Below, in pieces: positions 14,420 to 63,427 of a stretch of 64,000 bases of DNA (the stretch's first letter is position 1; each line of letters starts with the position of its first letter). Below the pieces are notes generated by a model, which worked only from the letters and a program-made list of their open reading frames with translations, ran no database searches and was not told the DNA's origin. A program made the position numbers and the translations under genes. Source of the DNA: Gammaproteobacteria bacterium (lineage in GTDB: Bacteria; Pseudomonadota; Gammaproteobacteria; SZUA-140); assembly GCA_026982565.1 (NCBI GenBank), contig JALSGV010000024.1, positions 13,341 to 77,340 of the forward strand, given 5' to 3'.

Positions 14420-15679
<1,260 letters not shown>

Positions 15680-43926: not shown

Positions 43927-44145
43927 TGCGCATTTCTCACCAAGTGGTGAGAAATACGGCTTAAGCCATCTCTTGACCAGTCTTGCACGAGACAGTCTCG
44001 TATATTTTCCGATGTTGTCCGAAGGGTTAGAATTGATGGGCGATTCGCGCTAAAATGCCGCCTTTCCCAGGCTGGCTATGATCAGTGCTTGTTTTTAAAA
44101 TCAGAATCGGACAAGCTGAACCTTATAATTGGATACAAGACAGAT

Positions 44146-47393: not shown

Positions 47394-48521
47394 TCTGACC
47401 CGTTCAACGGTGCATCTGATACTGTCGGGCACGGTCTGCTGAGGGGAAGGAGACTTCTCGTCACCCAGCCATACCGCCTGCCCGGAAGCGATCAGTTGTC
47501 GATGTACCAGGCGAATATCCCGGGTCAGCCGCTGGTGGCCGAATCGCATGAGCATTTTGTATAAAAATGCCCCGAGACGGAAATCGGTTTCTTCCTCGCT
47601 TGCGGCTCTTGCCGGCAGGGTGGCCGACGGCCAGCGCATGGCGTCTTGGCCCGTGCCGAGGTCGAAGATATAGACAGGTTTGCCCGTGGCGCAGGCTTCC
47701 GAGAGCATGGCGATACTGTCCCCGGTGACGATAATGGCCCTGGCCAGGCCCAGATAGGCATAATAGGGGTTGGCCGGGTCATCGGGTTTCCAGCGATAGA
47801 GCTGCATGGGGCAATCGACAGCCGATGCAAAGGCCTCGATGGCGGAGGGGGGGGTGCGTGCGCTGGTGGTGACGAGAAGAGAGCCGCCTTGTGATTGCGC
47901 CAGTTCGCAGGATTGGCGGGCAAGTCGTCGCGCAGCGTGGCGTCCCAGGGTATAGGGGCCGCTGTTACCGCCCATGACGACGGCGATGTATGGCTGGGGC
48001 AGGGATCGCAGATTCTGTGCATGGCCAGCCGCCGCTTCCTGTAAAAGTGCGTCAGTGACCCGGTGCAAGGTGGTGGTATTGTGCAGGATTCGGGGGGCAT
48101 GGGGCAGGCGGTATTGCGGCGTGGTGACGACGAGGTCGAAGTGCCTGAGCTGCGCCCAGTGCCTGCCGAGCAGGACAATGCGGCTCTTTCCTCCCGATTG
48201 TGCCTTGATCCAGCGGCATACGGGCTCGTTGCGCATGCCCGCCGAGATGATCAGGTCGGGCCAGGGGGGGGTGAGGGGGCTCGACCGTTCACGATCGATG
48301 CCCATCAGTGAACTGAGGCGCAGGAGCCCCGGGACAAAATCGTGGTGGCGGTACACGAGGCGCTTGACGGTAAAGGGCCAGCCGAGTGCCTCCGCCAAGG
48401 CGAGAATCTGCACGTTCTCGCCGGCGCGATATCCTGTGACGAGCCATACAGAGGGGGGTGGGGTTTCGTCGCTGATGTCTTCCGGTGGCGCTGGCATGTT
48501 GTTTGGTTTCATCGTGGGCAA
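47376..48521 (-). CDS. ELM1/DUF1022-family protein (predicted GT-B-like glycosyl- or phosphotransferase), paralog 1
   Basis: It shares the motifs PPWPDLIISAGMRNEPVCRWIK, GGNSGPYTL and IVTGDSIAML with two other ORFs in this window. Confidence 0.7.
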   Translation of the reverse strand: MPTMKPNNMPAPPEDISDETPPPSVWLVTGYRAGENVQILALAEALGWPFTVKRLVYRHHDFVPGLLRLSSLMGIDRERSSPLTPPWPDLIISAGMRNEPVCRWIKAQSGGKSRIVLLGRHWAQLRHFDLVVTTPQYRLPHAPRILHNTTTLHRVTDALLQEAAAGHAQNLRSLPQPYIAVVMGGNSGPYTLGRHAARRLARQSCELAQSQGGSLLVTTSARTPPSAIEAFASAVDCPMQLYRWKPDDPANPYYAYLGLARAIIVTGDSIAMLSEACATGKPVYIFDLGTGQDAMRWPSATLPARAASEEETDFRLGAFLYKMLMRFGHQRLTRDIRLVHRQLIASGQAVWLGDEKSPSPQQTVPDSIRCTVERVRSLLGR

Positions 48522-48642: not shown

Positions 48643-49758
48643 ATGTCATCGCAAACCAACAATACCTGTACTCCATCTCCCCGCATCTGGCTGGTCCTCA
48701 GTGACAAACTGGGAGACAATGCCCAGGTAGAGATCATCGCCGATGCGCTGGGTCTGCCCTATGTGACGAAGCGGGTGTACCCCCTGGAGCAATACGTGCT
48801 GGGCAAGCCCCCCTTCAAGGCTTCCCTCTATCATATCGACAAGGTCCGGTCCGACAGCCTGGAGCCGCCATGGCCCGATCTCATACTCACCATCGGGCGC
48901 CGCTCGGCCATGGTGGCCATGTGGATACGAGAACAAAGCGGAGGCCGGACCCGGGTGGTCCTGGTGGGGCGCCCCAAGCGGGATCTGGATCAATATGCCC
49001 TGATCATCGCGCCTTCCCAATATCATCTGCCTGACAGGCCTAACGTGCTGCGCCTCGACCTGCCCCTCATGCGGCCCGACGAGGCGGCCATCGGGAAGGC
49101 GGTGACCTTATGGCGTGAACGTTTTTCCACCATGCAACGCCCCATGTTCGCGCTCATGGTGGGAGGGGCCACCAAGCCTTTCGTTTTCGATGAAAAGGTG
49201 GCGCGGGAATTGACGGCCCGGGCCGCCGCCCTTGCCGCATCCGCCGGGGGAACACTCTATGTCACCACCAGCAGACGTACGCCGCCCGCAGTGGTGGAGG
49301 CCATCAAGGCGGCATTGCCTGAGCACTCACAGTTCTATCAGTGGCGCAAGGATGGCAAGGATAATCCCTATCTTGCCCTGCTCGGGCTGGCCGACTATTT
49401 CATCGTGACGGGCGACAGTGTCTCCATGATGGTGGAGGTGGCCCGGCTGGGCAGGCCCCTGGCTATATTCAGTTTGCCGGTCAGGGATGGGTTCGCAAGC
49501 CGCTTCCAACAGTGGATCTCAAGCCCGAAGATCGGAAAATATAACAGAATCCTCAGCAGATTAATTGTCTCGGCGATATCTCGACTGGGAATACTGGGTT
49601 ATACTCGCGATCTGACGGCCTTGCATCGCGTTTTGGTCGATAGGGGGCTGGCAGTACCCTTTGGCAAGCCTTTCCCCATAGCAGGAGAAAGGGCCCTGGA
49701 TGAACTGCCTCTGGTGGCCGCTCGAGTAAGGAAGCTGTTGGATGAAGAAAATGCATGA
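48643..49758 (+). CDS. ELM1/DUF1022-family protein, paralog 2
   Basis: It has PPWPDLILTIGRRSAMVAMWIR, MVGGATKPF and IVTGDSVSMM motifs. It is divergent from paralog 1. Confidence 0.7.
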   Translation: MSSQTNNTCTPSPRIWLVLSDKLGDNAQVEIIADALGLPYVTKRVYPLEQYVLGKPPFKASLYHIDKVRSDSLEPPWPDLILTIGRRSAMVAMWIREQSGGRTRVVLVGRPKRDLDQYALIIAPSQYHLPDRPNVLRLDLPLMRPDEAAIGKAVTLWRERFSTMQRPMFALMVGGATKPFVFDEKVARELTARAAALAASAGGTLYVTTSRRTPPAVVEAIKAALPEHSQFYQWRKDGKDNPYLALLGLADYFIVTGDSVSMMVEVARLGRPLAIFSLPVRDGFASRFQQWISSPKIGKYNRILSRLIVSAISRLGILGYTRDLTALHRVLVDRGLAVPFGKPFPIAGERALDELPLVAARVRKLLDEENA

Positions 49759-50681
49759 CAGGGTCTACATCGGTGTATCATAACAATATGCCTTTTCTGA
49801 ATATAAAAAGACTTAAGTTATGGCGTTCCGGAAAACGGCGCAGGGCCCACATTTCACTACGCTTCTGTTTCAATGATCTGCGTCTTTTCAGGCGTTATCG
49901 CCAGCCTGTGGAGTCTTTGCTCCACGAGCTTCCGGTGGTTGGAGGTGAGTGGCCGCGGCGCAGTGGTCCACTGCTGTTCACAGTCTGTGATCCGGAATAC
50001 TTCTATTTGCATGCCGAGGCTCTGATGGCATCAATCAATGAGAATGCTTCCGGGACGGCATTGCATTTGCATATGTATGATCCAGGCAAGGCTCAGTTCG
50101 ATGAAGTTGAGCGCTTGGCGCGGAAGTTTGATGGGGTCAACTTGAGCTATACCTGGGAGGAGACCGATTTGTCCTCTCTGAGCGAAGACAAGCGCATTGT
50201 TTACTACCAGTCCGCGCGCTTCATTCGTGTCTACTCCGCGCTGAAGTCCACCCGTACTCCCATCATCGTTCTGGATATCGACAGTCTGATTCGCGGCCCT
50301 GTGGATCAACTCGTCCGCGCGGCCCATGGCGCGGATATCGGCTTGATATTTCGTACAGAACTTTGTCATCCTGGCAAGAATATTTTGGCCTCAACGGTTT
50401 ATGCCGCCCCGACGAGCGCCAGCCTGGTTTTTTTTGAAAGCGTCGTAAAGCGTCTGTCTGTCCATCTGCTGGCGCGCGCCCAGACGGAGATGCTGGATCA
50501 ACGTTGCTTGTGGAGGTGTTACCTGTCCAATAAATCGCGGCTGAAGGTTTGGGGGATACCGCAACGTTTCAGCGACTGGAATCTCACCGAGGACAGCATT
50601 ATCTGGCATGGCAAGGGACCTCGCAAAGGGTGTGACAAGTTTATTCAGGAGAAAAACAAGCTTCTGGTGGTGCAAAATTAG
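49755..50681 (+). CDS. Hypothetical protein, possible DxD-type sugar transferase
   Basis: It is a 308-aa protein with no confidently recognised family. It has a VLDIDS motif. Its start overlaps the paralog-2 stop (ATGA), so the two are likely co-transcribed. Confidence 0.35.
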   Translation: MTGSTSVYHNNMPFLNIKRLKLWRSGKRRRAHISLRFCFNDLRLFRRYRQPVESLLHELPVVGGEWPRRSGPLLFTVCDPEYFYLHAEALMASINENASGTALHLHMYDPGKAQFDEVERLARKFDGVNLSYTWEETDLSSLSEDKRIVYYQSARFIRVYSALKSTRTPIIVLDIDSLIRGPVDQLVRAAHGADIGLIFRTELCHPGKNILASTVYAAPTSASLVFFESVVKRLSVHLLARAQTEMLDQRCLWRCYLSNKSRLKVWGIPQRFSDWNLTEDSIIWHGKGPRKGCDKFIQEKNKLLVVQN

Positions 50682-50732
50682 CCTGCATTTACCAGCTGGC
50701 TGAGGAGATATATTCTGGTCTTAGGGATGTAT

Positions 50733-51989
50733 TTATGAGGTGTTATCTTCTTTCTGGAAGTCGGTGGTCATCAAGTGCTCATATTGCTTGATTGCTTTGT
50801 CGAAAGAGAAAATCCTGGCTCTTTCCACGATTTTATCACGGGGTGGGGGCGATTCCAGTGTTTCAATAATGGCCTCCGCCATGAATTTTTCATCTCCAAC
50901 AGGCACCAGCTTTCCGATCGAGCCATTGTCAAGTATTTCCGCCGGGCCACTGGGGCAGTCGGTACTGACGACAGGGCAGCCACACGTCATTGCTTCAATT
51001 AACGCATTTGGCAGTCCTTCCCATGCAGAAGACAACACAAAAAGCGAGGCCCGGCTATAGAAGCTATGAGGGTTTTGTACATAACCGGCAAAATCGACGT
51101 CAGAACTGATCATCAGTTCTTTGGACAGTCCCATCAGTTCAGTGCGGCACCGCCCTTCACCAAGGATTATCAGTCGTACTGGTCGCTCGGATCGTACCAG
51201 GGCGAAGGCACGCAGGAGGGTCTTGAAGTCTTTTTGTGGCTTCAACTTGCCAGCGGCCACGATTACCGGAATCTTGTCCTGATTCAACCAGGGGTGTTCA
51301 ACGGGTTGCTTGGCCTGGGTCAGGATCTCCGGTCTGAAAACAGGATTATGGATGACGGTGATATGATCTAAAGGCAACCCTGTTATTTTGGCGATATCTT
51401 CTGCCACCCCATAGGAGGGCGCAACGATTTTGTCTGCCAGATGGTAGTAGCAGCGCATGATACGTGGTACGCTGCGCATCCACTTTGATTTGGCATTTTT
51501 TGCCGAACTTGAGATATGGTTGCGCACATTCACAAAAAACCTGGTTTTGTTCCCGCATAGCTGCGCGGTCAGGAGCAGAACCAGGTTGGGATAATTCAGG
51601 AATGACATAATGGTGTCCGGCCGGTGTTGGTGGATATAGCCATAAAGTGAATGGATGGGCGGTTTTTCTTTTATGATGGTTCTGATGAGGGGGGCAAGGC
51701 AGGAGTCGCCTCTTTGAATGAGGGTGTATGGCGCCGATGCAAGGTTTCTCAATATGGCGACTGCCAGAAAGCAATAATGGAACATCCCAGAGTAATAGTA
51801 TGGGCGCAAGTTAATTATATTGATATTGCTGTTATATGACCTGAGCGTGTCCAGGAGCCAGCCGCGGTCTTCTTCAACCAGGAGATCGACGGCGTGTCCA
51901 TTCTGAGAAAGACCCTTGACGATGCTGGCCACTACTTGCTCGGCGCCACGTGCAGATTCTATGGTTCTTATGTATATCGCAAATCTCAT
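50733..51989 (-). CDS. Glycosyltransferase family 4 (GT-B, retaining)
   Basis: It has the C-terminal GT4 motif SSAWEGLPNALIEAMTCGCPVVSTD and is 418 aa. Confidence 0.85.
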   Translation of the reverse strand: MRFAIYIRTIESARGAEQVVASIVKGLSQNGHAVDLLVEEDRGWLLDTLRSYNSNINIINLRPYYYSGMFHYCFLAVAILRNLASAPYTLIQRGDSCLAPLIRTIIKEKPPIHSLYGYIHQHRPDTIMSFLNYPNLVLLLTAQLCGNKTRFFVNVRNHISSSAKNAKSKWMRSVPRIMRCYYHLADKIVAPSYGVAEDIAKITGLPLDHITVIHNPVFRPEILTQAKQPVEHPWLNQDKIPVIVAAGKLKPQKDFKTLLRAFALVRSERPVRLIILGEGRCRTELMGLSKELMISSDVDFAGYVQNPHSFYSRASLFVLSSAWEGLPNALIEAMTCGCPVVSTDCPSGPAEILDNGSIGKLVPVGDEKFMAEAIIETLESPPPRDKIVERARIFSFDKAIKQYEHLMTTDFQKEDNTS

Positions 51990-52286
51990 GATAGATTACA
52001 GTTTGCCGCAGGCTGAATTGCCTTTTGACAGGGTCATTCGCTCGGGCTCGTCTCTTCCAATGACCCAAGCCGAAGTATTATTCAATAAAGACGGCGTCAA
52101 GACAACTTCAAGAGAAGTTCTCCTGTTCTCGCAAGTCAAAGTTGCAAACCGGAGGAGCTAGGTATGTCTATAACTAATTGGCGCCGGGGAATATTACCAC
52201 AATTACAACGCACTGTTTCCGTATATCGGTTTTGCAAGGGAATATTCCGGTTTGCAGGAAGTGTCAGAATCAGGTTAAGCGAATAA

Positions 52287-54263
52287 ATGTGCGGGATCGC
52301 TGGTTTTCTGAATTATTACGGGGAAAAGGCGGGGCCGGACGCGAAGGCGGTCATGTTACGGATGACAAATACCCTTGTGCATCGTGGCCCTGATGCCGGT
52401 TCGGTTTGGACGGATGCCGTTCATGGAATAGCTTTGGGTCACCGTCGCCTGTCTATTATAGATTTATCAGAAGCAGGTGTTCAGCCCATGGTATCTGCGA
52501 GCGGACGTTATGTCATTACCTACAATGGCGAGATCTACAATTACCGGGCGTTGCGCCGCGAATTGGAAATTTCCGGTTATCCTTTTCGTGGTCATTCCGA
52601 TACTGAAGTACTGCTCGCCGCCGTAGAGCACTGGGGTTTTGAAAGGGCCTTGCACCGCATCAGCGGCATGTTTGCTCTTGCAGTCTGGGATCGCAAGGGC
52701 CGTGTATTGATCCTTGCCCGTGACCGTGTGGGAAAGAAGCCGCTTTACTACGGTTGGTGCAATAATACACTGCTATTTGCGTCCGAGCTAAAGGCGCTCC
52801 GCTGCCATCCTGATTTTGACAACACCCTGGATCATAGCGCTTTGGCCCAATATATCCAGTACGGGTGGCTGGCTCAGCCCGCTTCTGTTTTCAGGAATGT
52901 AAGGAAATTGCCGCAGGGAAGCTTTATCCGGATTTCCATGGATGACCGGCCCTGGTCACCCAAGCCCAGACGGTATTGGTCGGCCAAGGATGTAATGCAA
53001 AAGAGGCGCAGGGCGTTATTCTCTGGCAGCTACGAAGAGGCCCTGGAGCGCCTGGAGGATATCCTGGTCGCATCAGTACATGACAGAATGGTGGCGGATG
53101 TGGATCTCGGGGCGTTGTTGTCCGGAGGTGTTGATTCATCGCTTGTTGTTGCCCTGATGAGGCAGTCTGGCAGCAGGCCGGGAGCGACATTCTCCATTGG
53201 TTTCTGGGAGCCGAAATACAACGAGGCAGAATATGCCGCCCAGGTTGCCCGACACCTGGGAACACGGCATCATGAGTTGTATGTGACGCCAGAGCAAAGC
53301 CTGGATATTATCGGTAGATTGCCACAGATATATGATGAACCTTTTGCAGATATTTCCCAGATTCCTACCTATTTAGTATCGGAGCTGGCGCGGAGCGAGG
53401 TGAAAGTCGTTCTGTCAGGAGATGGCGGTGATGAGCTTTTCGCCGGATATACACGGTATTTTGAGTGTCTCCGGCGTTGGAGGCGCAGCTCTCGCCTGCC
53501 TTTAAAAGCACGTCATATTCTGGGCGCCGCCATTGACTCATTAGGACGCTATAGCTGGGAATTGTGCAAGCCGCTTGATTATTCCCATGAGCGTAAGCTG
53601 CCAAAATGGCGGCGCTTGGGGAGCAAGTTGCAGCGCCATGCATGTGACTGGCATGTGGAGCATCCACAGCAATTGATTGCCAATACTTTTACCCACGGGC
53701 TCTATGGGTGTCAAATGATTCGTGGCGCTGGACATCAAGACACACTTCTTGGTGATTCATCGCAGTGGGTTGAGGGTGTAGACCCTCTTCATGCCATGAT
53801 GCATTACGATTTTGGTTCTTATCTGGCAGATGATATTTTGGTTAAAGTTGACAGGGCGAGCATGGCGGTTGGCCTGGAGGTGCGCTGCCCGTTACTGGAT
53901 AGCCGGCTGATAGAATTTGCCTGGTCACTGCCGAATCATTACCTGGTTGATGACCGGGGAGGCAAACGAATCCTCAAGGATGTGCTCAGGCGACATGTGC
54001 CGCAAACATTGATCGATCGTCCAAAGCGTGGTTTCAGCGTCCCTGTCGCAGACTGGTTGCGAGGTTCTTTACGCCCTTGGGCGGAGGATCTCTTGGATAT
54101 ATCCACATTGCAACGGCAGGGAATTTTTAATGCCGGGAGCGTGCATCGGCTTTGGAGGCAGCACTTATGTCGCTGGCGAAACCATACCAATCAATTGTGG
54201 GCCATATTGATGTTTCAGGCGTGGTTGCTTGAAACGGAAACAAGCAGGCGGGACGAACTCTGA
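52287..54263 (+). CDS. asnB: Asparagine synthetase (glutamine-hydrolysing)-family amidotransferase
   Basis: It has the N-terminal MCGIAG nucleophile and an Ntn-GATase domain. An adenylating synthetase domain with the SGGVDSS PP-loop follows. It is 658 aa. Confidence 0.85.
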   Translation: MCGIAGFLNYYGEKAGPDAKAVMLRMTNTLVHRGPDAGSVWTDAVHGIALGHRRLSIIDLSEAGVQPMVSASGRYVITYNGEIYNYRALRRELEISGYPFRGHSDTEVLLAAVEHWGFERALHRISGMFALAVWDRKGRVLILARDRVGKKPLYYGWCNNTLLFASELKALRCHPDFDNTLDHSALAQYIQYGWLAQPASVFRNVRKLPQGSFIRISMDDRPWSPKPRRYWSAKDVMQKRRRALFSGSYEEALERLEDILVASVHDRMVADVDLGALLSGGVDSSLVVALMRQSGSRPGATFSIGFWEPKYNEAEYAAQVARHLGTRHHELYVTPEQSLDIIGRLPQIYDEPFADISQIPTYLVSELARSEVKVVLSGDGGDELFAGYTRYFECLRRWRRSSRLPLKARHILGAAIDSLGRYSWELCKPLDYSHERKLPKWRRLGSKLQRHACDWHVEHPQQLIANTFTHGLYGCQMIRGAGHQDTLLGDSSQWVEGVDPLHAMMHYDFGSYLADDILVKVDRASMAVGLEVRCPLLDSRLIEFAWSLPNHYLVDDRGGKRILKDVLRRHVPQTLIDRPKRGFSVPVADWLRGSLRPWAEDLLDISTLQRQGIFNAGSVHRLWRQHLCRWRNHTNQLWAILMFQAWLLETETSRRDEL

Positions 54264-54418
54264 AACCCGGTTTCACTGAGAGTGGCTTTAGCGGAGAGCG
54301 TGACGCGGGATGCCGGATTCCGATATAATCAGCCATCCTCAAGCGCCGTGATCTAACGCCTGTCCCCTAATAACATACTGTATGTGCGAGAGAATATATT
54401 GAGAATGCAGGAGAGCTG

Positions 54419-55354
54419 ATGCAAGTTTTTTTGAAAAAAATCACCCGGGAACTGGTCCTGCTACTGATGTTTTTCTTCCCGGAGGAAAAGAAGATCGCCG
54501 TCGAGCGCTGGCTGCGCGGGCGCGAGGAATTCCGCAAGCTCAAGCAGGCCGATTGCGTGGTGGTTTCCTTTGGCAAGAGCGGACGTACATGGCTGCGGGT
54601 CATGTTGTCGCGCTTCTACCAGGTGCGTCATGGGCTCTCGGAGAAACACCTGATGGGTTTCGATAATCTGCACCGCAAGGTCCCGGAGATACCGGTGATT
54701 TTCTTTACTCATGACAACTACCTCAAGGATTACACGAAACATTTTGATTCAAAAGAAGATTATTTGAGCAAGAAAGTGGTTCTGCTGGTGCGCGATCCGC
54801 GCGATGTAGCGGTTTCGCAATTTTTTCAGTGGAAATACCGCATGCGCGCCAAGAAAAAGAATCTCAACCAGTATCCTGAACATGGCAAGGACGTCCCCAT
54901 CTATGATTTCGTGATGGACCCTCAGGCCGGACTACCCAAGATCATAGATTTCATGAATCTGTGGGCAAAGGAAATGCCGCGTATAGAGAATATACTGGTG
55001 GTGCGTTACGAGGACCTGCGTGCCAGGACTGCCGAAGTCCTGAGGCAAATCGTTGAATTCGTTGGTACTCCCGGTACAGAAGAACAGATCCAGCAGGCTG
55101 TGGAGTTTTCATCCGTGGAAAACATGAAGAAGCTGGAAGAAAAGCGGACTTTCTGGCTCAGCGGCAGCCGCATGGTGCCCAAGGACCGCAAGAATCCCAA
55201 TTCCTACAAGGTGCGGCGCGCCAAGGTGGGCGGCTACAGCGACTACTTCGATGAGCAACAGATTGCCGCCATCGAACAGGTGGTTAACGAAACCCTGTCC
55301 CCCGTCTACGGTTATGGTGCGACGCAGAGGGACGACCGCGTTGCCAGTGCTTGA
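54419..55354 (+). CDS. PAPS-dependent sulfotransferase (NodH/Sulfotransfer_3-like)
   Basis: It has a 5'-PSB motif (SFGKSGRTWL) and a 3'-PB motif (LLVRDPRDVAVS). It is 311 aa. Confidence 0.75.
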   Translation: MQVFLKKITRELVLLLMFFFPEEKKIAVERWLRGREEFRKLKQADCVVVSFGKSGRTWLRVMLSRFYQVRHGLSEKHLMGFDNLHRKVPEIPVIFFTHDNYLKDYTKHFDSKEDYLSKKVVLLVRDPRDVAVSQFFQWKYRMRAKKKNLNQYPEHGKDVPIYDFVMDPQAGLPKIIDFMNLWAKEMPRIENILVVRYEDLRARTAEVLRQIVEFVGTPGTEEQIQQAVEFSSVENMKKLEEKRTFWLSGSRMVPKDRKNPNSYKVRRAKVGGYSDYFDEQQIAAIEQVVNETLSPVYGYGATQRDDRVASA

Positions 55355-55452
55355 AACCCGCCCCAGAACGGGGAATGTGTGGAACAAGTATATTAAACCA
55401 CACATTCAGTGTGATATATTTTGCTGTATTTATATTCTAAGGGAGTCTGACA

Positions 55453-56361
55453 ATGGACTATTGTGTATTCATTCAAACCAATCATAAGCAATATATTGGC
55501 GCGTTGGTTGCAGAATACGCGCTGAAAAGGAACTCCAGGCACGCGGACAAATTCGACGTTCGCATCATGCACATGAAAGATTATCCTTTCTTTGAAGCGA
55601 AGGAAGGCCAGCTTTATCTGCGCGACGGCGCCAAGCGTACCTGGCTCAATGACGACCTGCAATCCTTCACGCTCACCCGTTTCATGCCTCCCGAACTGAT
55701 GGGTTACCAAGGACGTGCCGTGGTGATCGATCCCGATGTCTTTGCCGTGGGTGATGTATGGGAGCTGTTGTCCAGGGACATGGAGGGCAAGGCCATTATG
55801 TGTCGTCCCCGCTCAGGAAGAAAGGGAAAGGTCTATGGCTGTCTCGCCAGCAGTGTCATGTTGCTGGACTGCGCCAAGCTGACGCATTGGCGTGTTGAAG
55901 AGCAATTCAACGAAATGTTCGAGTTCAAGCGGGATTACATGGACTGGATCTGTGTCAAGCTCGAGCCCCGCGAGACCATCGGTTTGCTGGAGAACGAGTG
56001 GAACGACTTTGACAAGTTGACCGAAAAGACCAAGATGCTCCACACCACCAAGCGCAAGACCCAGCCATGGAAAACAGGGCTGCCGGTGGATTTCAGGCCT
56101 CCTGAGCGGGTGAGGGGATTTTCACCCCAGGGTTGGCTGCAATCCTTGCGGCGGCAGTTGTTTGGGGAGTATGGGCTGATGGGGCACTACAAACCTCATC
56201 CCGATCCCAATCAGGAAAAATTCTTCTTCGGGCTGCTGAAGGAGTGCGTTGAGAAGGGCATCGTTACGGAAGAAATGATCCGGGAGCAGATGCGCCTCAA
56301 CCATGTACGCCATGACGCCCTGGAGGTGCTGGAGCGTACGCCGCCGCTGGCTGCCGCCTGA
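55453..56361 (+). CDS. GT8-like (GT-A fold) putative glycosyltransferase, tandem paralog A
   Basis: It has a DxD-like VVIDPD motif and a C-terminal H..K..QPWK motif resembling the GT8 HxxGxxKPW motif. It is 302 aa. Confidence 0.45.
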   Translation: MDYCVFIQTNHKQYIGALVAEYALKRNSRHADKFDVRIMHMKDYPFFEAKEGQLYLRDGAKRTWLNDDLQSFTLTRFMPPELMGYQGRAVVIDPDVFAVGDVWELLSRDMEGKAIMCRPRSGRKGKVYGCLASSVMLLDCAKLTHWRVEEQFNEMFEFKRDYMDWICVKLEPRETIGLLENEWNDFDKLTEKTKMLHTTKRKTQPWKTGLPVDFRPPERVRGFSPQGWLQSLRRQLFGEYGLMGHYKPHPDPNQEKFFFGLLKECVEKGIVTEEMIREQMRLNHVRHDALEVLERTPPLAAA

Positions 56362-56376: not shown

Positions 56377-57297
56377 GTGGAGACTGATACCGTGGAACAT
56401 TGTGTTTTTATCCACACCAATCACAAACAGATCGTCGGCGCCCTGGTGGCCCAGCATGCCTTGCGGCGCTATTCTCGCCACAACGACAAGTTCGATGTGC
56501 AGATCATCCATACCAAGGATTATCCTTTCCTGCGCGAGCGCGAGGGGCAGGAATATCTGCGGGATGGCGTGAAAAGAACCTGGCTCTATGATGACCTGCA
56601 GTCCTTTACGCCGTTGCGCTTCATGCCGCCTGAATTGATGGGCTACAGCGGGCGCGCCGTGGTCATCGACCCGGATATCTTTGCCGTCAGTGACGTTTGG
56701 GACCTGCTGTCCCGCGACATGGATGGCAAGGCCATCATGTGCCGCATGCGCGCCGGCCCCAAGGGATTTATCGACCGCTGCTGGGCCAGCAGCGTCATGC
56801 TGCTGGATTGCGCCAGGCTGACACACTGGCGGGTGGAAGAGCAGTTCAACGCCATGTTCGAGTTCAAGCGCGATTATTCCAAATGGGTCTGCCTCAAGCT
56901 CGAGCCTCGTGAGACCATCGGCGTCCTCGAGGATGAATGGAATGACTTCGATAAATTGAGCAGCGAAACCAGGATGCTGCACAATACGCGGCGACTGACC
57001 CAGCCGTGGAAGGCCGGGCTGCCCATTGATTGGCGGCCGGCGGAGAAATTCCGCCTGTTTCCTCCTCTGGGCTGGCTGATGCGCGCCAGGCGCAAGTTGT
57101 TTGGGGAATACGCCCTGCTGGGAAGCTACAGGCGCCATCCTGATATCAAACAGGAACAGCTTTTCTTTGGGTTGCTGAGGGAGTGCCTGGAAGAGGGAGT
57201 GGTAACGGAAGAGATGCTGCGCACAGAGATGCGGCAGAATCATGTAAGGCATGATGCCTTTGAGGTTCTGGAGCAGACACCACCTCTGTCTGCCTGA
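56377..57297 (+). CDS. GT8-like (GT-A fold) putative glycosyltransferase, tandem paralog B
   Basis: It is a 306-aa protein about 65% identical by eye to the upstream ORF. The VVIDPD and HNTRRLTQPWK motifs are both conserved. Confidence 0.45.
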   Translation: METDTVEHCVFIHTNHKQIVGALVAQHALRRYSRHNDKFDVQIIHTKDYPFLREREGQEYLRDGVKRTWLYDDLQSFTPLRFMPPELMGYSGRAVVIDPDIFAVSDVWDLLSRDMDGKAIMCRMRAGPKGFIDRCWASSVMLLDCARLTHWRVEEQFNAMFEFKRDYSKWVCLKLEPRETIGVLEDEWNDFDKLSSETRMLHNTRRLTQPWKAGLPIDWRPAEKFRLFPPLGWLMRARRKLFGEYALLGSYRRHPDIKQEQLFFGLLRECLEEGVVTEEMLRTEMRQNHVRHDAFEVLEQTPPLSA

Positions 57298-57336: not shown

Positions 57337-58233
57337 TCAGCACTTGTAGCGTTTGAAGAACTTCCTGTTGCGTAAAGCATGTTTCCGGGCCTGCATGACA
57401 TGGCGCCTGATTTCCTGCCAGAATGTCAGGTAGGTGAATGATGTTCGTGGGGATCCTGATCCACCATGGTCTGGCGACGCCCTTCCGGTCTGTTTCTTCC
57501 GGTGCTGATCCCAGGTCACGGCATAGTCACTTTGCATGGGGGGTGTCTGGAATAATGGTTTTTGCCCGGTCTTCCTCGCGTGTACCCACAGCATTAAGGG
57601 GCGGGCCGTTATGACGCGCATTCTTTTGCCTGCGATGCGGGGGTCGGCAACACGGTAACAGCGATGCCTCCTGCTGGCCTCTACGGAGGTGAACGGGGAT
57701 TCGATGACGCTGACCGATTCAGTGACGAATCCATTGTCATGGGAAAAAACCCGGTAGAACAGCTCCGGGGAAAACTGATAGAGGCCATGGCCGAGGAGAT
57801 TGTTTGCCGGAACATTGATGAAAATGCTGCCACCCGTTTTGACCATCTCCATGTAGTTCATCAGTACCTGCCGCACATCGAAGATATGTTCCATGGTGCC
57901 GCCATCGATGAGTACATCGAAGGCGCCATGGAACGTCTTTGGAACGGGATGGTTGAAATCATGGGTGATGTCGGCGCCCTGATAGTCGGAATAGTCGAAT
58001 GACGTAACAGTCTCTGCGTCCAGTACCTGGCGGATGAATTCGTCGGCAAATCCGTTACGGAACAGGGAGGCGGGCGGTTCAGGGTTCGTCATGCCCCTGC
58101 ATTTTTGCAGGCGTTCCAGGTCTTCCCGGGGTATACAAAGGGAAAGCCGTCCAATCGTGGCGGTTTTTCTGAAATTGGTTCCCCGATTCCGTGCATCGAC
58201 AAGATGTGTGCCTGTGATTGTGGTGATCCCCAT
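57337..58233 (-). CDS. Putative SAM-dependent methyltransferase-like protein
   Basis: Motif II/III-like segments are present (FDVLIDGGTMEHIFD; MVKTGGSIFINVP). Motif I is not clear. The start is uncertain. Confidence 0.35.
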   Translation of the reverse strand: MGITTITGTHLVDARNRGTNFRKTATIGRLSLCIPREDLERLQKCRGMTNPEPPASLFRNGFADEFIRQVLDAETVTSFDYSDYQGADITHDFNHPVPKTFHGAFDVLIDGGTMEHIFDVRQVLMNYMEMVKTGGSIFINVPANNLLGHGLYQFSPELFYRVFSHDNGFVTESVSVIESPFTSVEASRRHRCYRVADPRIAGKRMRVITARPLMLWVHARKTGQKPLFQTPPMQSDYAVTWDQHRKKQTGRASPDHGGSGSPRTSFTYLTFWQEIRRHVMQARKHALRNRKFFKRYKC

Positions 58234-58251: not shown

Positions 58252-59238
58252 TCAGTGATAATGCGAATACCTGTATCCCAGCAGGCTGGTGAACATGCCC
58301 AGTCCTTCCGATACACGGAAGGCCCCCGAATAGAATCTGCCTTTGTTCCGGTTCCAAGGCAGGAATGATCCTACCATGATGAGCGAACCTGACACTATGT
58401 TGGTGATGGAACGGGTAAGGGTCTTGAATAACAGTTTTGCCTTTTTCCAGTTGCTGCCGGCATATCTGGTGAGTTGAAGTTTGGTGATGAGCTTGAGGTT
58501 GCCACGGCGGAATTCCGTTTGCAACAGGTAAGTGAAGCGGGCCCGTTGCGGCGGCACCCTTTCAATGGCCCTGGCCTGCGGCGCCCAAAAGATGCGATAG
58601 CCTTGTTCCCGGACTTGCCTGAAGAACAGTTTGTCCTCGCCGCCACTCAGGGCCAGCCTGTTATCGAAGCGCAGCCCCGATTTCCTGAGCATGGTCTTGA
58701 GCAACAGGCAGTTTCCCGTGGCTGCCGAGTTCAGTTCCTGCCCCTCGTCTAGCTCCTGATGCCAGCGGGGGGTTGCAAAGAAGCCACCTTCCCTCATCCA
58801 CTGCGGGACATGGCCCGTGAAGGAGGGGAGAACCGGGCCGAAGATGACTTCGCCTTGTGTGCGGGTCTGGATTAGCAGCAGCTGTTCCAGCCACGTTGGC
58901 TCGGGAATTTCGTCATCGTCGAGAAAGGCAATGAAGTCGGTCTGAGGTGGCGCCTGATCCAGACAGGCGTTGCGCGCATGGCTGATGCCACGCTCGATCA
59001 CAGGCACGTAGATCATGGGAATGGAGGTGAACTGGTGAAAATCCCGGCAAATCTGCTCATTGACCTCACTGGCCTCGTTGTCAGCGATAAGGACCGTAAT
59101 GGCGGGGGTTGATATGCGTTCGAAAGTCAGAGCAGAGATGCCGTCCAGCAGGTCTTTCAATCCCCGCGGTCGCTGGTAGGTGCATGCGCAGATACAGACA
59201 TGAACATTGCCCGTTGTCGGAGGCGTTTCACTGGACAT
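58252..59238 (-). CDS. Glycosyltransferase family 2 (GT-A)
   Basis: It has CICACTYQRP, an acidic FLDDDE motif and a GGEDKLFF segment. It is 328 aa. Confidence 0.82.
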   Translation of the reverse strand: MSSETPPTTGNVHVCICACTYQRPRGLKDLLDGISALTFERISTPAITVLIADNEASEVNEQICRDFHQFTSIPMIYVPVIERGISHARNACLDQAPPQTDFIAFLDDDEIPEPTWLEQLLLIQTRTQGEVIFGPVLPSFTGHVPQWMREGGFFATPRWHQELDEGQELNSAATGNCLLLKTMLRKSGLRFDNRLALSGGEDKLFFRQVREQGYRIFWAPQARAIERVPPQRARFTYLLQTEFRRGNLKLITKLQLTRYAGSNWKKAKLLFKTLTRSITNIVSGSLIMVGSFLPWNRNKGRFYSGAFRVSEGLGMFTSLLGYRYSHYH

Positions 59239-60475
59239 GAGGTGATACAGGCCTTGCCATATGCCGGGGTTCGGTGCGGAACATTCCCTTTACACGTTGT
59301 ACTGTCCGAGTCAGATCATCCTGAGGTGCGGAATCGTTTTCTCCGAGTGGTTCTCCCAGCCATGCCGCCCGGCCTGCCTGGATCAGCCGCTCATGGAGGC
59401 CGCGCACTTCACGCCGCATGCGCTTTGGTCCCAGCCACATGGCCAGGCGGTGTGAGAGGGGGCGCAGGCGGAAGTTATAGCCATAACGCCACCAGGGAAG
59501 CCTGTCTCCAGGCGCGGGGGGGCGGTGAGCGCCAGGATCGTCGGCAAGATCGAAGATATAGACGGGTTTTCCCGTCTCGCAGGCCTCACAGACCATGGAG
59601 ACGCTGTCTCCCGTAACGATGAATGCATCGGCCAGGGCGAGAAAGGCGAAGTAGGGGTTGTCCTTGTCATTTGCTGACCAGCAGTGGTAGTAAGCAGGTG
59701 ACTGGATCAGGTCCCGCAGTGCCGGCATGGCGTGGAGAGGCGTCCGCGCGCTCGAGGTAACCAGCAGGGAGCCGCCGCACCGTTTTGCCAGTGCGTCGGC
59801 GCTTCGTGCCAGGGTGCGGATCTTGATGTCATTGAGGGTGAAGGGGCCACTGTTGCCTCCGACGAGCAGGGCGATAAAGGGATGGGGCAGGTGCGAAAGC
59901 CTGTCCGTCCATGCGCGGGCTGCCGAGGCAAGCCGCTGCTCAGTAATGCGGTGCAGTGGAAGCATGTTGTGCAGGATATTTGTGGCCTGGGGCAGGCAAT
60001 ATTGAGGGGTTGTGACGATGAGATCGAATTGCGCCAATGGAGCCCAGGGACGGCCAAGATGGACGAGGCGTGTCTGTCCATGGGATTGTTGCCGTATCCA
60101 GCGGGCAACGGGCTCGTTGCGGCGCCCGGCAGTAATCACCAAGTCTGGCCATGGTGGAGCCAGTGGTGTGGATTCGTGCTGTTTTATGCCCGCCAGCGTC
60201 GGCCCCAGCAGCAGGTTGCTCAACAACTCGCTTTTCCGATACACCATGTGCTTGCTCTCGTAGGGCCAGCCGAGCGCTTCGGCCAGGGCAAGGACCTGGT
60301 TGTTGTCTCCCGCCTTGTGTCCCATCAGCAGCCATGTCTGGGGAACTTTTTCCCGATTGGCGTAGATGTTGCCATGGGGAAACGGTGTGGAGCTGGGTGG
60401 GGGTGGAAACGGGGCAGGCATTGTTACATTATAGCAAGCATTCAACGGAACACGCCCTGGCGGTACAGACGCCAC
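59228..60475 (-). CDS. ELM1/DUF1022-family protein, paralog 3
   Basis: It has PPWPDLVITAGRRNEPVARWIR, VGGNSGPFTL and IVTGDSVSMV motifs. It is 415 aa with a longer N-terminus. Confidence 0.7.
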   Translation of the reverse strand: MASVPPGRVPLNACYNVTMPAPFPPPPSSTPFPHGNIYANREKVPQTWLLMGHKAGDNNQVLALAEALGWPYESKHMVYRKSELLSNLLLGPTLAGIKQHESTPLAPPWPDLVITAGRRNEPVARWIRQQSHGQTRLVHLGRPWAPLAQFDLIVTTPQYCLPQATNILHNMLPLHRITEQRLASAARAWTDRLSHLPHPFIALLVGGNSGPFTLNDIKIRTLARSADALAKRCGGSLLVTSSARTPLHAMPALRDLIQSPAYYHCWSANDKDNPYFAFLALADAFIVTGDSVSMVCEACETGKPVYIFDLADDPGAHRPPAPGDRLPWWRYGYNFRLRPLSHRLAMWLGPKRMRREVRGLHERLIQAGRAAWLGEPLGENDSAPQDDLTRTVQRVKGMFRTEPRHMARPVSPHVQ

Positions 60476-61398
60476 ATGAGGCCCCAGATGAATATCAGGG
60501 GATAACGGCGCAGGCGTGGCGTGATTTCAATAGTGGCGCCCGAGTGCCGCTCCAGTTTCCAGATGAGGTAGTCCAGCCCGCCTTCGAAGGTGAAGAAGGC
60601 CTTCAGCAGGCGCGCCACTGACAGCAATTTTCCCTGGACGATGCGCAGGCGCCAAGCGGCCTTGTTGCCAAGGCTTTGATGTCTTGCAACGGGTTCTTGG
60701 CAAAAGGCGGCGCCATTTCCATTTGCCTGATGAATTCCCGGGAACGAGGTCAGGGCAAGGCCCGTGATTTCATCGAAATAGGTTTCAAAATGTTGGTAAA
60801 TCTCCTTGCCGCGTTGTCCCTTCTCCACGCGCAACTCCGCACGATAGGTAAGGCCGAGCCCTTTTTCCCATATGTCGGCAATGGTGAAATTCGGGGGGAG
60901 TGATGGCAAGACGCGCGCCATAAAGGTCATAATCGCTTGTCCCAGACTGGAGTGGATCTGGCTGGTGGCGGCCTGGTCGCGCGCATACAGCAATCCCGTG
61001 GGCTGGGCGAAACGCGCCCAGACATAGGAGTGAAACCAATGTGCGCAGCCTCTGTGCAGGTCCTGCCGGGAGAGCACGGCGTATTTGCTGCGCAAGACTC
61101 CTTGGGGATGTCTGGCTTCCAGGTAGAATACGTTGGGCGGCAGCAGGGTGTTGAGAATGGCCAGCCGCCTTTTTTCAAAGGCTTTGTGGTAGTCATCGAC
61201 AATGACATAGAGATCCACCAGCCCATCGAAGGGGTCGCCTCCTCGCAGGCATGAGCCATAAAACAGGATGGCCAGCAGGGAATCGCCGTAACGTTCCCGC
61301 AGGGCATCCCGCAATGTATCCAGGGCCGGATCATGTGGCAGGCCGGTTTGTTTGGCAATGGTTGCAATGAGGGCGGGTGGCGGGGCAGGGATCTTCAT
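60442..61398 (-). CDS. Nucleotidyltransferase-fold protein, Tam41/Mmp37-like (putative CDP-lipid synthase type)
   Basis: It has the Pol-beta-like NTase signature (LLAILFYGSCLRGGDPFDGLVDLYVIVDD). It is 318 aa and overlaps the paralog-3 start. Confidence 0.45.
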   Translation of the reverse strand: MKIPAPPPALIATIAKQTGLPHDPALDTLRDALRERYGDSLLAILFYGSCLRGGDPFDGLVDLYVIVDDYHKAFEKRRLAILNTLLPPNVFYLEARHPQGVLRSKYAVLSRQDLHRGCAHWFHSYVWARFAQPTGLLYARDQAATSQIHSSLGQAIMTFMARVLPSLPPNFTIADIWEKGLGLTYRAELRVEKGQRGKEIYQHFETYFDEITGLALTSFPGIHQANGNGAAFCQEPVARHQSLGNKAAWRLRIVQGKLLSVARLLKAFFTFEGGLDYLIWKLERHSGATIEITPRLRRYPLIFIWGLMWRLYRQGVFR

Positions 61399-62474
61399 CG
61401 GGCTTTTTCGCTGAAACGCAGGAAATGGAGGGGCTCCCCATGGCCGATGCGCAGGGGGCCGGCGGCCAGGCGCGCCGGATACAGCTCGCCGTCGATGGTG
61501 AAGGTCCCCTCCATGGCCAGTTCCAGTGTATCCACCTTGCGGCTCCAGTAACCGTTGCGGGCCGTCACGTGGCGGTTGGTGCGGCCCCAGAAAAGGCGCG
61601 GCAAGGTGCGCAGGGCATGACGGGCGCCTGAGCGGATGGCGGTGAAGTGCAGGGTGCCTGCATCATCCCCCCAGTAAGGGTGCGTGCCGAGAAACAATCT
61701 GTTCAGGGCGGAGACCATCAGCAGGAAATAGTCTTTTTCCCCTTCCATGCCGGGCATCTGCGGGCGCATCTGTAACGACATGGGTACGGGCGCCACGTAG
61801 CGGTGATCATTGCGCGCCATGGCATAGAGTACACGCAGGGCGCACAGACCGGGGCCCAGGCTGTCGCGCAGGCCGGGGCGCAGGACCTTCCGGTGGCAGT
61901 ATTCGATCCCTTTGATGATGGCGCCGGCGCCGAAGAACATGCCATATAAGGGCGCTTCGTCACCGGCCACTACCCGAATTGGGGCGCGGCGGATTACCTC
62001 CAAGGCGGGCGTGGTGGCATCCGCCCAGCACAGGAGTCGTTCCAGGCTGTGCGCTGCCTTGCCTGTCAACCCTACATCTCCCGCCGTCATGTTGGTCGTG
62101 CCGCCACGCAACAGCGCCAGTAGAGGGGGGTGTCCGAATGGCCGCTTCTCCATCAAGGCAGTGAGCACGGCGGCAATGGTGCCGTCGCCGGCGTTGATGG
62201 CCAGCACATCGGGAGGCGCGGCAGCCATGTTTTCCAGTGCGGTCAGAATCTCGGCCGGGTTCCTGGATAGGTGGTGGGTGACGCCAGGGTGGCGCCCGAG
62301 GATCGCCTCGACCCACGCCATGCCCCGGCAGTTTCTGCCGCTGCCTGGATTGGACAACAGGGCAACGCGCAGGGAGCGGCCAGCGGGAACAGGGATGTTC
62401 TGTGAGGTGTGAATGGGATTTTCCTGGTTAAATATCCTGATTCGACTGCATATCGTATACTGGATGCATGACAC
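61395..62474 (-). CDS. DAGK_cat/sphingosine-kinase-family lipid kinase (candidate ceramide or sphingoid-base kinase)
   Basis: It has the DAGK catalytic-domain motifs (RVALLSNPGSGRN; LAINAGDGTIAAV; LRGGTTNMTA). It is 359 aa. Confidence 0.65.
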   Translation of the reverse strand: MSCIQYTICSRIRIFNQENPIHTSQNIPVPAGRSLRVALLSNPGSGRNCRGMAWVEAILGRHPGVTHHLSRNPAEILTALENMAAAPPDVLAINAGDGTIAAVLTALMEKRPFGHPPLLALLRGGTTNMTAGDVGLTGKAAHSLERLLCWADATTPALEVIRRAPIRVVAGDEAPLYGMFFGAGAIIKGIEYCHRKVLRPGLRDSLGPGLCALRVLYAMARNDHRYVAPVPMSLQMRPQMPGMEGEKDYFLLMVSALNRLFLGTHPYWGDDAGTLHFTAIRSGARHALRTLPRLFWGRTNRHVTARNGYWSRKVDTLELAMEGTFTIDGELYPARLAAGPLRIGHGEPLHFLRFSEKAR

Positions 62475-63427
62475 AGGTAAAACACAATGATGTCGTTCAG
62501 GCTGAGGGCATACCGGTCTACACGCTTGCCCATTTATCTGATCCGCACCTGACCTCCCTCGACGACGTCAAGATGAGAGAGCTGCTCAACAAGCGCCTGC
62601 TGGGTTATCTGTCATGGCGCAGTCACCGCCGCGAGGAGCACCGCGCGGAGGTCTTGCAGGCACTGGTGAACGATCTGCGGGAAATACAGCCAGACCACAC
62701 GGTGATCACCGGCGACATGACCCATGTGGGTCTGCCGCAGGAGTGCCGGGAGGTCAGCGCCTGGCTTTCATCCCTTTCCGATGCCCGGTGTCTGACGGTG
62801 ATTCCTGGAAACCATGATGCCTATGTGGCGGCGCCGTGGGGGAAAACCATGGGATTGTGGACATCATATATGGCGTCGGATACTGCCGCTTCACTGACGC
62901 GGGATGCGCTCTTTCCTGCGCTGAGGGAACGCGGACCCCTTGCCCTTATCGGTCTTTCCAGCGCCTCTCCCACTCCTCCTTTCTTCGCCACGGGGCGGTT
63001 GGGAGTGGCGCAGTTGGCGGCCCTTGAGCGCTTGTTGCAGGAAACCGGGGCCCGGGGTCGGATTCGCGTTCTGCTCATTCACCATCCACCCATGAAGCAT
63101 GCCATTGGCTGGCGCAAGCGATTGACCGATGGCGACGCGCTATGCGGCATCATCGCCAAGCACGGGGTAGAGATGGTGTTGCACGGGCATACTCACCGTT
63201 CCGTGATGGATAAGCTGCAGACGGATTCCGGGGAGGCGCCCGTGATCGGCGTGCCGTCTGCCTCGGGCATCGGTCTCAAGCCCGGCAAGCGGGCGCAATA
63301 TCATCTTTACCACTTCTACGACGGCCCTTGGGGGCGGCGGCTCCGTATCTCCGTGAGGGGTTATGATGTAGAGGAAGAACGCTTTGTCGCCCAGGGGACT
63401 CGGCAGTCCTCCCTTCCCGCGGAATGA
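62468..63427 (+). CDS. Calcineurin-like metallophosphoesterase
   Basis: It has the motifs DPH, GDMTH, GNHD, IHHPP and GHTHR. It is 319 aa and divergent from the lipid kinase. Confidence 0.8.
   Translation: MTQVKHNDVVQAEGIPVYTLAHLSDPHLTSLDDVKMRELLNKRLLGYLSWRSHRREEHRAEVLQALVNDLREIQPDHTVITGDMTHVGLPQECREVSAWLSSLSDARCLTVIPGNHDAYVAAPWGKTMGLWTSYMASDTAASLTRDALFPALRERGPLALIGLSSASPTPPFFATGRLGVAQLAALERLLQETGARGRIRVLLIHHPPMKHAIGWRKRLTDGDALCGIIAKHGVEMVLHGHTHRSVMDKLQTDSGEAPVIGVPSASGIGLKPGKRAQYHLYHFYDGPWGRRLRISVRGYDVEEERFVAQGTRQSSLPAE

Follow-up and report, generated by a model that had tools for sequence, protein, structure and literature searches.

Encoded at positions 54419–55354 (plus strand) of a 64,000-nucleotide stretch of DNA from a Gammaproteobacteria bacterium (contig JALSGV010000024.1, positions 13,341 to 77,340; this whole stretch is referred to here as the window) is a protein that is very probably an active sulfotransferase dependent on 3′-phosphoadenosine-5′-phosphosulfate (PAPS). 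By gene family and synteny the surrounding genes are a sphingolipid locus of the Caulobacter ceramide-phosphoglycerate (CPG) type, and the protein is likely to be an O-sulfotransferase that works at the inner membrane on a ceramide-anchored head group before the lipid is exported. This proposal is built on four kinds of observation: family membership, intact cofactor-binding and putative catalytic residues, the composition of the locus, and conserved synteny.

The sulfotransferase open reading frame (ORF) starts with ATG, preceded at 4 nt by the ribosome-binding site GGAGAG, and encodes 311 residues. Its match to Pfam PF00685 (Sulfotransfer_1) is far beyond chance (E 1.8e-28, 100.1 bits against a cut-off of 22, profile positions 3–251 of 255), and at E ≤ 0.01 the only Pfam matches are PF00685 and PF13469; no model in the NCBIfam scan names the protein. 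Database homologues number 6270 at E ≤ 1e-5, with 65–100% identity for the best 120, and the existing database names of the window proteins are ‘hypothetical protein’ or ‘sulfotransferase domain-containing protein’. Nearest by sequence among PDB structures are Arabidopsis SOT18 and SOT16 and human SULT2A1 (E of about 1e-10 with the single sequence and 4e-13 with a profile). An AlphaFold model built from 30 orthologues has a predicted local distance difference test (pLDDT) score of 83.9, and the 50 PDB matches listed for it by Foldseek are all enzymes of the PAPS-sulfotransferase fold (best E 2.5e-8, TM score of about 0.55), including SULT2A1, SULT2B1b (cholesterol), AtSOT18 and retinol dehydratase. 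Retinol dehydratase (PDB 1fmj and 1x8j) and sorghum LGS1 (22ga) occur among the sequence and fold matches.

The cofactor chemistry predicted for this protein follows from its family membership and from residues that are invariant in an alignment of 30 orthologues (66–100% identity). The 5′-phosphosulfate-binding (PSB) loop, SFGKSGRTWL, occupies residues 50–59 (nt 54566–54595); G52, K53, S54, G55, R56, T57 and W58 are invariant, and GKSGRTW pairs in the alignment with PKSGTNW of SULT2A1. The 3′-phosphate-binding (3′-PB) motif is VLLVRDPRDVAVS (residues 121–133, nt 54779–54817), of which LLVRDPRDVAVS pairs with YLMRNPRDVLVS of SULT2A1, with R125 and S133 invariant. Towards the C terminus, the variant segment VRRAKVGGYSDYF pairs with LRKGVSGDWKNHF and retains R266, K269, G271 and G272 in every orthologue. 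Located directly after predicted strand 94–97 is H98 (within FFTHDNY), which is likewise invariant and is a candidate for the catalytic base. The initial annotation, made from the sequence of the window, had named a PAPS-type sulfotransferase with intact cofactor motifs; the PF00685 match, the sulfotransferase fold and the invariance of the motif residues K53, S54, R125 and S133 bear this out.

At the N terminus is a conserved amphipathic helix (residues 1–20, hydrophobic moment of about 0.4, Kyte–Doolittle mean of 1.3–1.4) that may serve as an in-plane membrane anchor. A transmembrane segment in this region is ruled out: the helix is short and polar for such a role, and the Kyte–Doolittle mean, at most 1.42 over 19 residues, is below the range of membrane-spanning segments, with charged residues inside.

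The first 37 kb of the window consists of housekeeping genes (leuS, holA, rng, yhdP, murA, the his operon, tatC, degP, alternative complex III, rpe and trpE), and from 37.5 kb to the window end extends the sphingolipid locus. Its features, together with the promoter candidate of the sulfotransferase gene, are as follows.

37507–38511, minus strand: 334-aa protein at the locus edge, membership of the locus uncertain; no family match, weak relatives in loci L036, L040 and L042
38559–39371, minus strand: CpgD-like nucleotidyltransferase (NTP_transf_3, E 6e-13; PMC12275187)
39414–40556, minus strand: YghO-like 380-aa protein, candidate ceramide synthase by position; shares 50% of residues with E. 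coli YghO across 373 aa
41136–42959, plus strand: fatty acyl-AMP ligase, AasR-like (NF006624, 784 bits against a cut-off of 600)
42829–43926, plus strand: reductase of the NAD-dependent epimerase/dehydratase family, CerR-like; gene order as in the E. coli spt locus
44089–44391, plus strand: specialised acyl carrier protein (ACP), AcpR-like (family scan)
44388–45590, plus strand: serine palmitoyltransferase, Spt (NF047599 equivalog, 618 bits against a cut-off of 500)
45639–47393, plus strand: MsbA/HepA-like ATP-binding cassette (ABC) exporter, candidate flippase; position of CC_1166 (PMC11324152)
47376–48521, minus strand: ELM1-like paralogue a (PF06258)
48643–49758, plus strand: ELM1-like paralogue b (PF06258)
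49755–50681, plus strand: 308-aa protein with a DxD-like motif (VLDIDS), possible GT-A-type transferase; recurs in sister loci
50733–51989, minus strand: GT4 glycosyltransferase (family scan)
52287–54263, plus strand: AsnB-type glutamine amidotransferase, 658 aa (family scan)
54300–54329, plus strand: sigma-70-like promoter candidate by consensus, GTGACG-18-TATAAT (10 of 12 matches); within the 156-nt gap 5′ of the sulfotransferase gene
54419–55354, plus strand: PAPS-type sulfotransferase (N-terminal helix, PSB loop, putative catalytic H98, 3′-PB motif and R266/K269/G271–G272, as above)
55453–56361, plus strand: GT8-like glycosyltransferase A, 302 aa, by its GT-A fold model; D93-P-D95 and H197...Q204-P205-W206
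56377–57297, plus strand: GT8-like glycosyltransferase B, 72% identity to A; start at 56392 according to the gene caller on an identical contig
57337–58233, minus strand: weak class-I methyltransferase-like protein (E of about 5e-3, below cut-off)
58252–59238, minus strand: GT2 glycosyltransferase (family scan)
59228–60475, minus strand: ELM1-like paralogue c (E 2e-68), in the CpgA position beside CpgC and CpgB; synteny with CC_1159–1161 (PMC11324152)
60442–61398, minus strand: CpgC-like protein, assigned by synteny; weak Tam41/nucleotidyltransferase similarity
61395–62474, minus strand: DAGK_cat lipid kinase, CpgB-like ceramide kinase (E 2.2e-9; PMC10331486), assigned by synteny
62468–63427, plus strand: metallophosphoesterase, CC_1158-like (Metallophos, E 3e-13; PMC11324152)

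The sulfotransferase gene is thus bracketed by Spt, AasR-, CerR-, ACP- and CpgD-like genes on one side and by ELM1-, CpgC- and CpgB-like genes on the other, as the initial annotation had held in placing it in a sphingolipid-tailoring cluster. The ceramide core assumed there is real, Spt passing its NCBI equivalog cut-off, and so is the flanking by glycosyltransferases, with GT4 upstream and the two GT8-like genes and GT2 downstream. The CpgA-, CpgC- and CpgB-like genes are adjacent to each other and are accompanied by the CpgD-like and phosphoesterase genes, in the arrangement expected for a CPG locus; directly after the phosphoesterase, just beyond the window end on an identical metagenomic contig, are two LptF_LptG genes. 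Orthology to the Caulobacter proteins was assigned from family and synteny rather than from direct sequence comparison. In published work on the Caulobacter locus for ceramide phosphoglycerate and diphosphoglycerate, CpgB acts as ceramide kinase (PMC10331486), CDP-glycerate is made by CpgD (PMC12275187), a genetic requirement exists for CpgA, CpgC, CC_1153 and CC_1158 (PMC11324152), and LptF2/G2 is implicated in export (bioRxiv 10.64898/2026.04.12.717747).

The YghO-like protein matched no family model in the Pfam and NCBIfam scans; the Thiogranum longum protein in the same position gives a faint GNAT match, and YghO itself has this position in the E. coli spt locus. Of 5426 complete E. coli genomes, 1412 have this four-gene spt operon annotated, accompanied by lptGF paralogues and a divergent yghO. 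The spt locus of E. coli ATCC 11775 (L089, NZ_CP033092.2 753196–781902) comprises yghO, a fatty acyl-AMP ligase pseudogene, an epimerase-family gene, ACP, spt, lptG and lptF, and includes neither an ELM1-like gene nor a sulfotransferase. The CpgC-like protein (60442–61398) matches Pfam Tam41, the mitochondrial phosphatidate cytidylyltransferase family, with an E-value of 3e-4, below cut-off; this weak match fits the published suggestion that CpgC makes nucleotide-activated ceramide phosphate. About 25 kb 5′ of the sphingolipid locus, among the housekeeping genes, is a full-length YhdP homologue (9147–12959, plus strand, 1270 aa, Pfam E 8e-269). The YhdP family is linked to lipid transport to the outer membrane; its proximity here is probably coincidental. 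A terminator-like hairpin at 55399–55413, between the sulfotransferase and the first GT8-like gene, was discounted, the number of such hairpins in the region being no higher than in shuffled sequence.

A scan of one genome per species identified at least 569 related stretches. In the best 80 of these, which were examined, the sulfotransferase is 59–83% identical and is carried by Gammaproteobacteria (Thiogranum, Thiohalobacter, Competibacteraceae, Methylococcales, Pseudomonadales and Sedimenticola) and Alphaproteobacteria (Fodinicurvata, Defluviicoccus, Algihabitans, Pelagibius, Kiloniellales and Benzoatithermus). Synteny was counted by tblastn with 22 window proteins in the 34 species loci having at least 8 kb on both sides. 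Within 10 kb of the sulfotransferase, an ELM1-like gene is present in 31 of the 34 and a GT8-like gene in 30 (immediately downstream on the same strand in 26), such that the three genes form a triad conserved across both classes. At least one sphingolipid marker (Spt, ACP, CerR, AasR, CpgB, CpgC, CpgD, YghO-like or phosphoesterase) lies within the same distance in 16 of the 34. One locus, L001 (CP070738.1, the 2.45-Mb ‘chromosome’ of a metagenome-assembled genome), was dropped as synteny evidence; with truncated genes, gaps of about 100 nt and unrelated functions, it looks like a gapped or chimeric assembly stitched from fragments.

Close relatives (72–90% identity), mostly from hydrothermal-vent and similar metagenomes, keep the locus architecture, in the order Spt-ABC...sulfotransferase-GT8-GT8...GT2-ELM1-CpgC-CpgB-phosphoesterase-LptFG, and cultured Thiogranum longum (L088) has the whole locus with two sulfotransferases. 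The segment 5′ of the sulfotransferase varies among these relatives and may contain GT11, extra sulfotransferases, methyltransferases, Wzy_C or AsnB. In the window, G+C content falls to 0.50–0.53 over positions 50000–56000 (GT4, AsnB, the sulfotransferase and the first GT8-like gene), compared with about 0.60 in the flanking core sphingolipid genes and a window mean of 0.564; part of this low-G+C segment is where sister loci vary in gene content, as in variable regions of the O-antigen type.

The AsnB-type gene, located directly 5′ of the sulfotransferase gene, has counterparts in 11 or more of the 80 species loci, as well as in loci L002/L003 (58% identity) and L005 (54%); its product may possibly amidate a head-group carboxylate, for example that of glycerate or a uronic acid. 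Inside sphingolipid loci are also Wzy_C (O-antigen ligase/polymerase-like) genes (L005, 4403–5683 and 13144–14340; L088 of Thiogranum longum, 13362–14543), a hint that a polymer could be ligated onto a ceramide-anchored core in the periplasm. A gene for a 2-oxoglutarate-Fe(II) (2OG-Fe(II)) oxygenase occurs in about 16 of the 80 species loci, and in the five checked by Pfam it encodes about 210 aa and is directly 5′ of the sulfotransferase orthologue (L014, 8993–9616; L049, 9230–9886; L051, 9261–9899; L063, 9275–9904; L064, 9260–9898). This enzyme may be a hydroxylase that creates the sulfation site; the window has no homologue of it.

The ORFs directly downstream of the sulfotransferase, GT8-like A and B, are tandem paralogues for which there is no Pfam, NCBIfam or PDB sequence match above cut-off, nor any PDB relative found by a family profile. 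Similarity to Pfam PF01501 is confined to the DxD region and is below threshold (E 0.038, 14 bits against a cut-off of 24.3). The structure model of GT8-like A (pLDDT 73.9) gave 50 listed Foldseek matches in the PDB, all of them GT8 or GT8-like GT-A enzymes (XXYLT1, GlyE, LgtC, glycogenin, LARGE1 and UGGT among them; best E 2.8e-8, TM score 0.34–0.46), and the D93-P-D95 and H197...Q204-P205-W206 motifs are invariant in the family. On this predicted fold the most fitting description of the pair is a divergent GT8-like transferase family. The assignment would give a provisional function to about 6300 ‘hypothetical’ proteins in the databases; among the best 120 listed, not one has a Pfam domain, and any names given are ‘hypothetical’. 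Between the window and relatives L004 and L009, identity is 98% for GT8-like A, compared with 78% for the sulfotransferase and 65–88% for other genes of the locus, which suggests recent exchange of this segment or unusually strong constraint.

Three ELM1-like (PF06258) paralogues with 36–48% mutual identity are present in the one locus (47376–48521, minus; 48643–49758, plus; 59228–60475, minus). To our knowledge, Acinetobacter baumannii KdoT is the sole bacterial member of this family to be biochemically characterised. KdoT is a 3-deoxy-D-manno-oct-2-ulosonic acid (Kdo) transferase acting on Kdo2-lipid A, and Rickettsia homologues complement its loss (PMC10936431, PMC12856342). The sulfotransferase loci are a third genomic context for these poorly understood bacterial transferases.

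PAPS supply is encoded next to the sulfotransferase in some carriers. In two Fodinicurvata species, cysD and a fusion of cysN with cysC (adenosine 5′-phosphosulfate kinase) are immediately 5′ of the orthologue (L015, 7058–9744; L022, 7056–9742), and a CitMHS or Na-sulfate symporter-like gene is 3′ of it. By gene content these are a dedicated PAPS supply module. Sinorhizobium NodH acts with dedicated PAPS synthesis genes, NodPQ (cysDN/C-like), and the similar cysD–cysNC arrangement in Fodinicurvata supports use of PAPS by the orthologues.

In the mechanism we propose, the sulfotransferase would sit peripherally on the cytoplasmic face of the inner membrane by means of its N-terminal amphipathic helix. 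Following chemistry standard for the family, His98 would take a proton from the hydroxyl of the acceptor, the PSB loop would use Lys53 and Ser54 to hold the 5′-phosphosulfate and stabilise the leaving group, and Arg125, Ser133 and the R266/K269/G271–G272 segment would hold the 3′-phosphate. For the acceptor, the sequence of steps and the route of export, the proposal draws on synteny. Ceramide would be converted into ceramide-1-phosphate by the CpgB-like kinase and would then receive a phosphoglycerate-type head group through the CpgC-, CpgD- and ELM1/CpgA-like proteins; the acceptor is most likely a hydroxyl of a head-group residue that is attached by the ELM1-like and GT8-like transferases conserved alongside the sulfotransferase. 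Sulfation would occur in the cytoplasm, ahead of flipping, and the sulfated, glycosylated anionic lipid would be flipped by the MsbA-like ABC exporter and then delivered to the outer membrane via the adjacent LptF/G paralogues. The product is most likely a phospho-glyco-sphingolipid rather than sulfatide. The ‘sulfatide-like’ glycolipid of the initial annotation therefore survives as an analogy only, because the cluster is of the CPG phospho-sphingolipid type and not a simple glycosyl-ceramide pathway.

Several observations weigh against this mechanism. About half of the 34 well-flanked loci are without a sphingolipid marker within 10 kb of the sulfotransferase, and the triads of Methylococcales are surrounded by housekeeping genes only. 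Splitting of sphingolipid loci has been reported for several lineages (PMC11324152), with which these lone triads fit, as does a complete Methylohalobius genome (genus-level evidence only) in which a ceramide core locus has no triad nearby. One orthologue is beside PagL, DegT, TylF and AsnB, and neither an ELM1-like nor a sphingolipid gene is present within 10 kb of it. Genes of the lipid A acyltransferase family occur in 3 of 15 marker-less loci, where a Pfam census of 123 neighbouring ORFs found mostly unrelated families and no decisive lipopolysaccharide (LPS) or sphingolipid signal. The ELM1-like family, the tightest-linked neighbour of the sulfotransferase, is not sphingolipid-specific, including as it does the lipid A–Kdo transferase KdoT. 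Searches of the 64-kb window by tblastn for CysD, CysN-CysC, CysH and a sulfate-permease-like protein found no PAPS-synthesis genes. As for the catalytic histidine, a pairwise HMMER alignment sets the non-conserved H108, not H98, opposite that of the plant enzymes, and the placement at H98 rests on conservation and predicted secondary structure; H108 was set aside for this role, the position being H, N or Q among orthologues.

Strongest of the rival explanations, and in our judgement unlikely, is that the triad modifies lipid A, the inner core of LPS or some other glycan of the envelope instead of the sphingolipid, its position in a sphingolipid locus reflecting the clustering of outer-membrane lipid genes with common Lpt-type export. 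The activity of KdoT and of its Rickettsia homologues, the orthologue adjoining PagL and the lipid A acyltransferase-family genes would be in keeping with this, and Wzy_C and the variable GT4, GT2 and GT11 genes give the loci an LPS-core or O-antigen look; LpsS, which sulfates LPS in Sinorhizobium, is a precedent. However, sphingolipid genes bracket the sulfotransferase on both sides in the window and in close relatives, the frequency of markers near it in two proteobacterial classes greatly exceeds what chance would give for a locus about 25 kb long, and the called genes of L004, L005, L007 and L088 include no WaaA, heptosyltransferase or lpx; the split loci, as seen in Methylohalobius, also offer an account of the marker-less triads. 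Rather improbable is direct sulfation of ceramide, either on a hydroxy-acyl chain or on the long-chain base, at its hydroxyl on C1 or C3. The resulting ceramide sulfate would be an anionic counterpart of ceramide-1-phosphate that contains no phosphate. By fold, the nearest enzymes are small-molecule and steroid sulfotransferases acting on lipophilic alcohols (SULT2A1, SULT2B1b and AtSOT18), the N-terminal amphipathic helix suits a membrane-embedded acceptor, and the 2OG-Fe(II) oxygenase of some loci could create the acceptor hydroxyl. Yet the near-obligate pairing with GT8-like and ELM1-like genes points to a more elaborate head group, the window is without the oxygenase, and the locus retains a ceramide kinase, which uses the C1 hydroxyl.

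A sulfate that is only a transient leaving group, used for elimination, substitution or cyclisation of the head group and gone from the mature lipid, is a very improbable outcome. Retinol dehydratase and sorghum LGS1, of the same fold, work in this way, and sulfotransferase domains of the CurM type use sulfate for transient activation. The conserved partners of the gene are transferases, however, with no thioesterase or lyase conserved beside it, and cysDNC beside the Fodinicurvata orthologues suggests a bulk demand for PAPS, as for a structural sulfate. We give scarcely any credence to a coincidental location, in which the protein would be a stand-alone cytosolic enzyme for a soluble metabolite or xenobiotic, or an inactive relic. 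Its nearest solved structures are indeed soluble small-molecule sulfotransferases, but all of its cofactor-binding and putative catalytic residues are invariant in the 30 orthologues, identity between Alpha- and Gammaproteobacteria remains at 59–83% in the best 80 stretches, and synteny with both transferase families is found in about 90% of the 34 well-flanked loci.

Extending the proposed sulfation of a ceramide-anchored head group, we tentatively suggest that the locus might build a hitherto undescribed class of outer-membrane lipid, an LPS-like glycoconjugate on a ceramide anchor, the triad making a sulfated ‘inner core’ on phosphoglycerate-type ceramide, although we consider this more doubtful than the sulfation itself. 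Were it so, the variable GT4, GT2, GT11, AsnB-type, extra sulfotransferase and (in sister loci) Wzy_C ligase-like genes would extend the core, which would be exported by dedicated LptF/G paralogues; such a conjugate would be widespread in sulfur- and methane-oxidising Gammaproteobacteria and Rhodospirillales-type Alphaproteobacteria, and sulfate would supply negative charge instead of part of the phosphate.

Bacterial sphingolipids have recently been recognised as outer-membrane lipids that can partly replace LPS. Their known head groups are sugars, phosphoglycerol, phosphoethanolamine and phosphoglycerate (PMC12275187). A sulfated head group, if confirmed, would be a new chemical class of bacterial sphingolipid, would alter what is expected of the surface charge, of cation binding and of susceptibility to polymyxin and phages, and would bear on the phosphate economy of vent, sediment and wastewater bacteria. 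The enzyme superfamily and the locus type are already known, and the sulfotransferase is an addition to the latter; full-text literature searches found nothing that links bacterial sphingolipids or spt to a sulfotransferase, or the GT8-like pair to bacterial sphingolipid biosynthesis. That the outer membrane contains a sulfated sphingolipid is a specific prediction, applies widely and is directly testable by lipidomics, since cultured carriers exist: Thiogranum longum and, among the scan matches, Fodinicurvata fenggangensis DSM 21160, F. halophila, Algihabitans albus and Benzoatithermus flavus.

Among the closest known systems is the Caulobacter locus CC_1152–CC_1168 (ccna_01210–01226), which shares gene families and a similar order with the window (PMC11324152, PMC12275187, PMC10331486, bioRxiv 10.64898/2026.04.12.717747). 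Common to both are the AasR-CerR-AcpR-Spt set, a candidate ceramide synthase, a CpgD-type nucleotidyltransferase, a flippase-like ABC exporter, the ELM1-like CpgA beside CpgC and the CpgB kinase, the phosphoesterase and LptF2/G2. Caulobacter has one ELM1-like gene, whereas the window has three and additionally contains GT4, GT2, methyltransferase-like and AsnB-type genes; neither a sulfotransferase nor GT8-like genes are mentioned in the Caulobacter papers cited here. A. baumannii KdoT is likened to the three ELM1-like neighbours by family (PF06258) only, and differs in acting on Kdo2-lipid A from within a lipooligosaccharide core locus.

As an enzyme, the window protein resembles SULT2A1 and SOT18 (PF00685) in its fold, its PSB loop (GKSGRTW, compared with PKSGTxW), its 3′-PB motif, an RKGxxGDW-like C-terminal segment and, probably, a conserved histidine after the central strand. 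It differs in having only about 20% identity to them, in being bacterial and encoded in a membrane-lipid locus, in an additional pair of N-terminal amphipathic helices (residues 1–43) and in the variant C-terminal motif RRAKVGGY. GAL3ST1, which makes sulfatide, also transfers sulfate from PAPS to a sphingolipid head group; it works in the Golgi lumen on galactosylceramide, whereas the head group of the window locus is probably of the phosphoglycerate type. GAL3ST, the animal cerebroside sulfotransferase, is a Pfam family other than PF00685, and at E ≤ 0.01 the window protein has no match to it, so the resemblance to sulfatide synthesis is one of functional analogy and not of membership. Among bacteria, Sinorhizobium NodH and LpsS and Mycobacterium Stf0 are PAPS-dependent cytoplasmic sulfotransferases that act on envelope glycoconjugates, with lipo-chitooligosaccharide, LPS and trehalose as acceptors, none of them ceramide-linked. 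Likened to NodH and NodPQ by description rather than by sequence, the PAPS synthesis genes beside the Fodinicurvata orthologues repeat the pairing of such an enzyme with its own cofactor supply.

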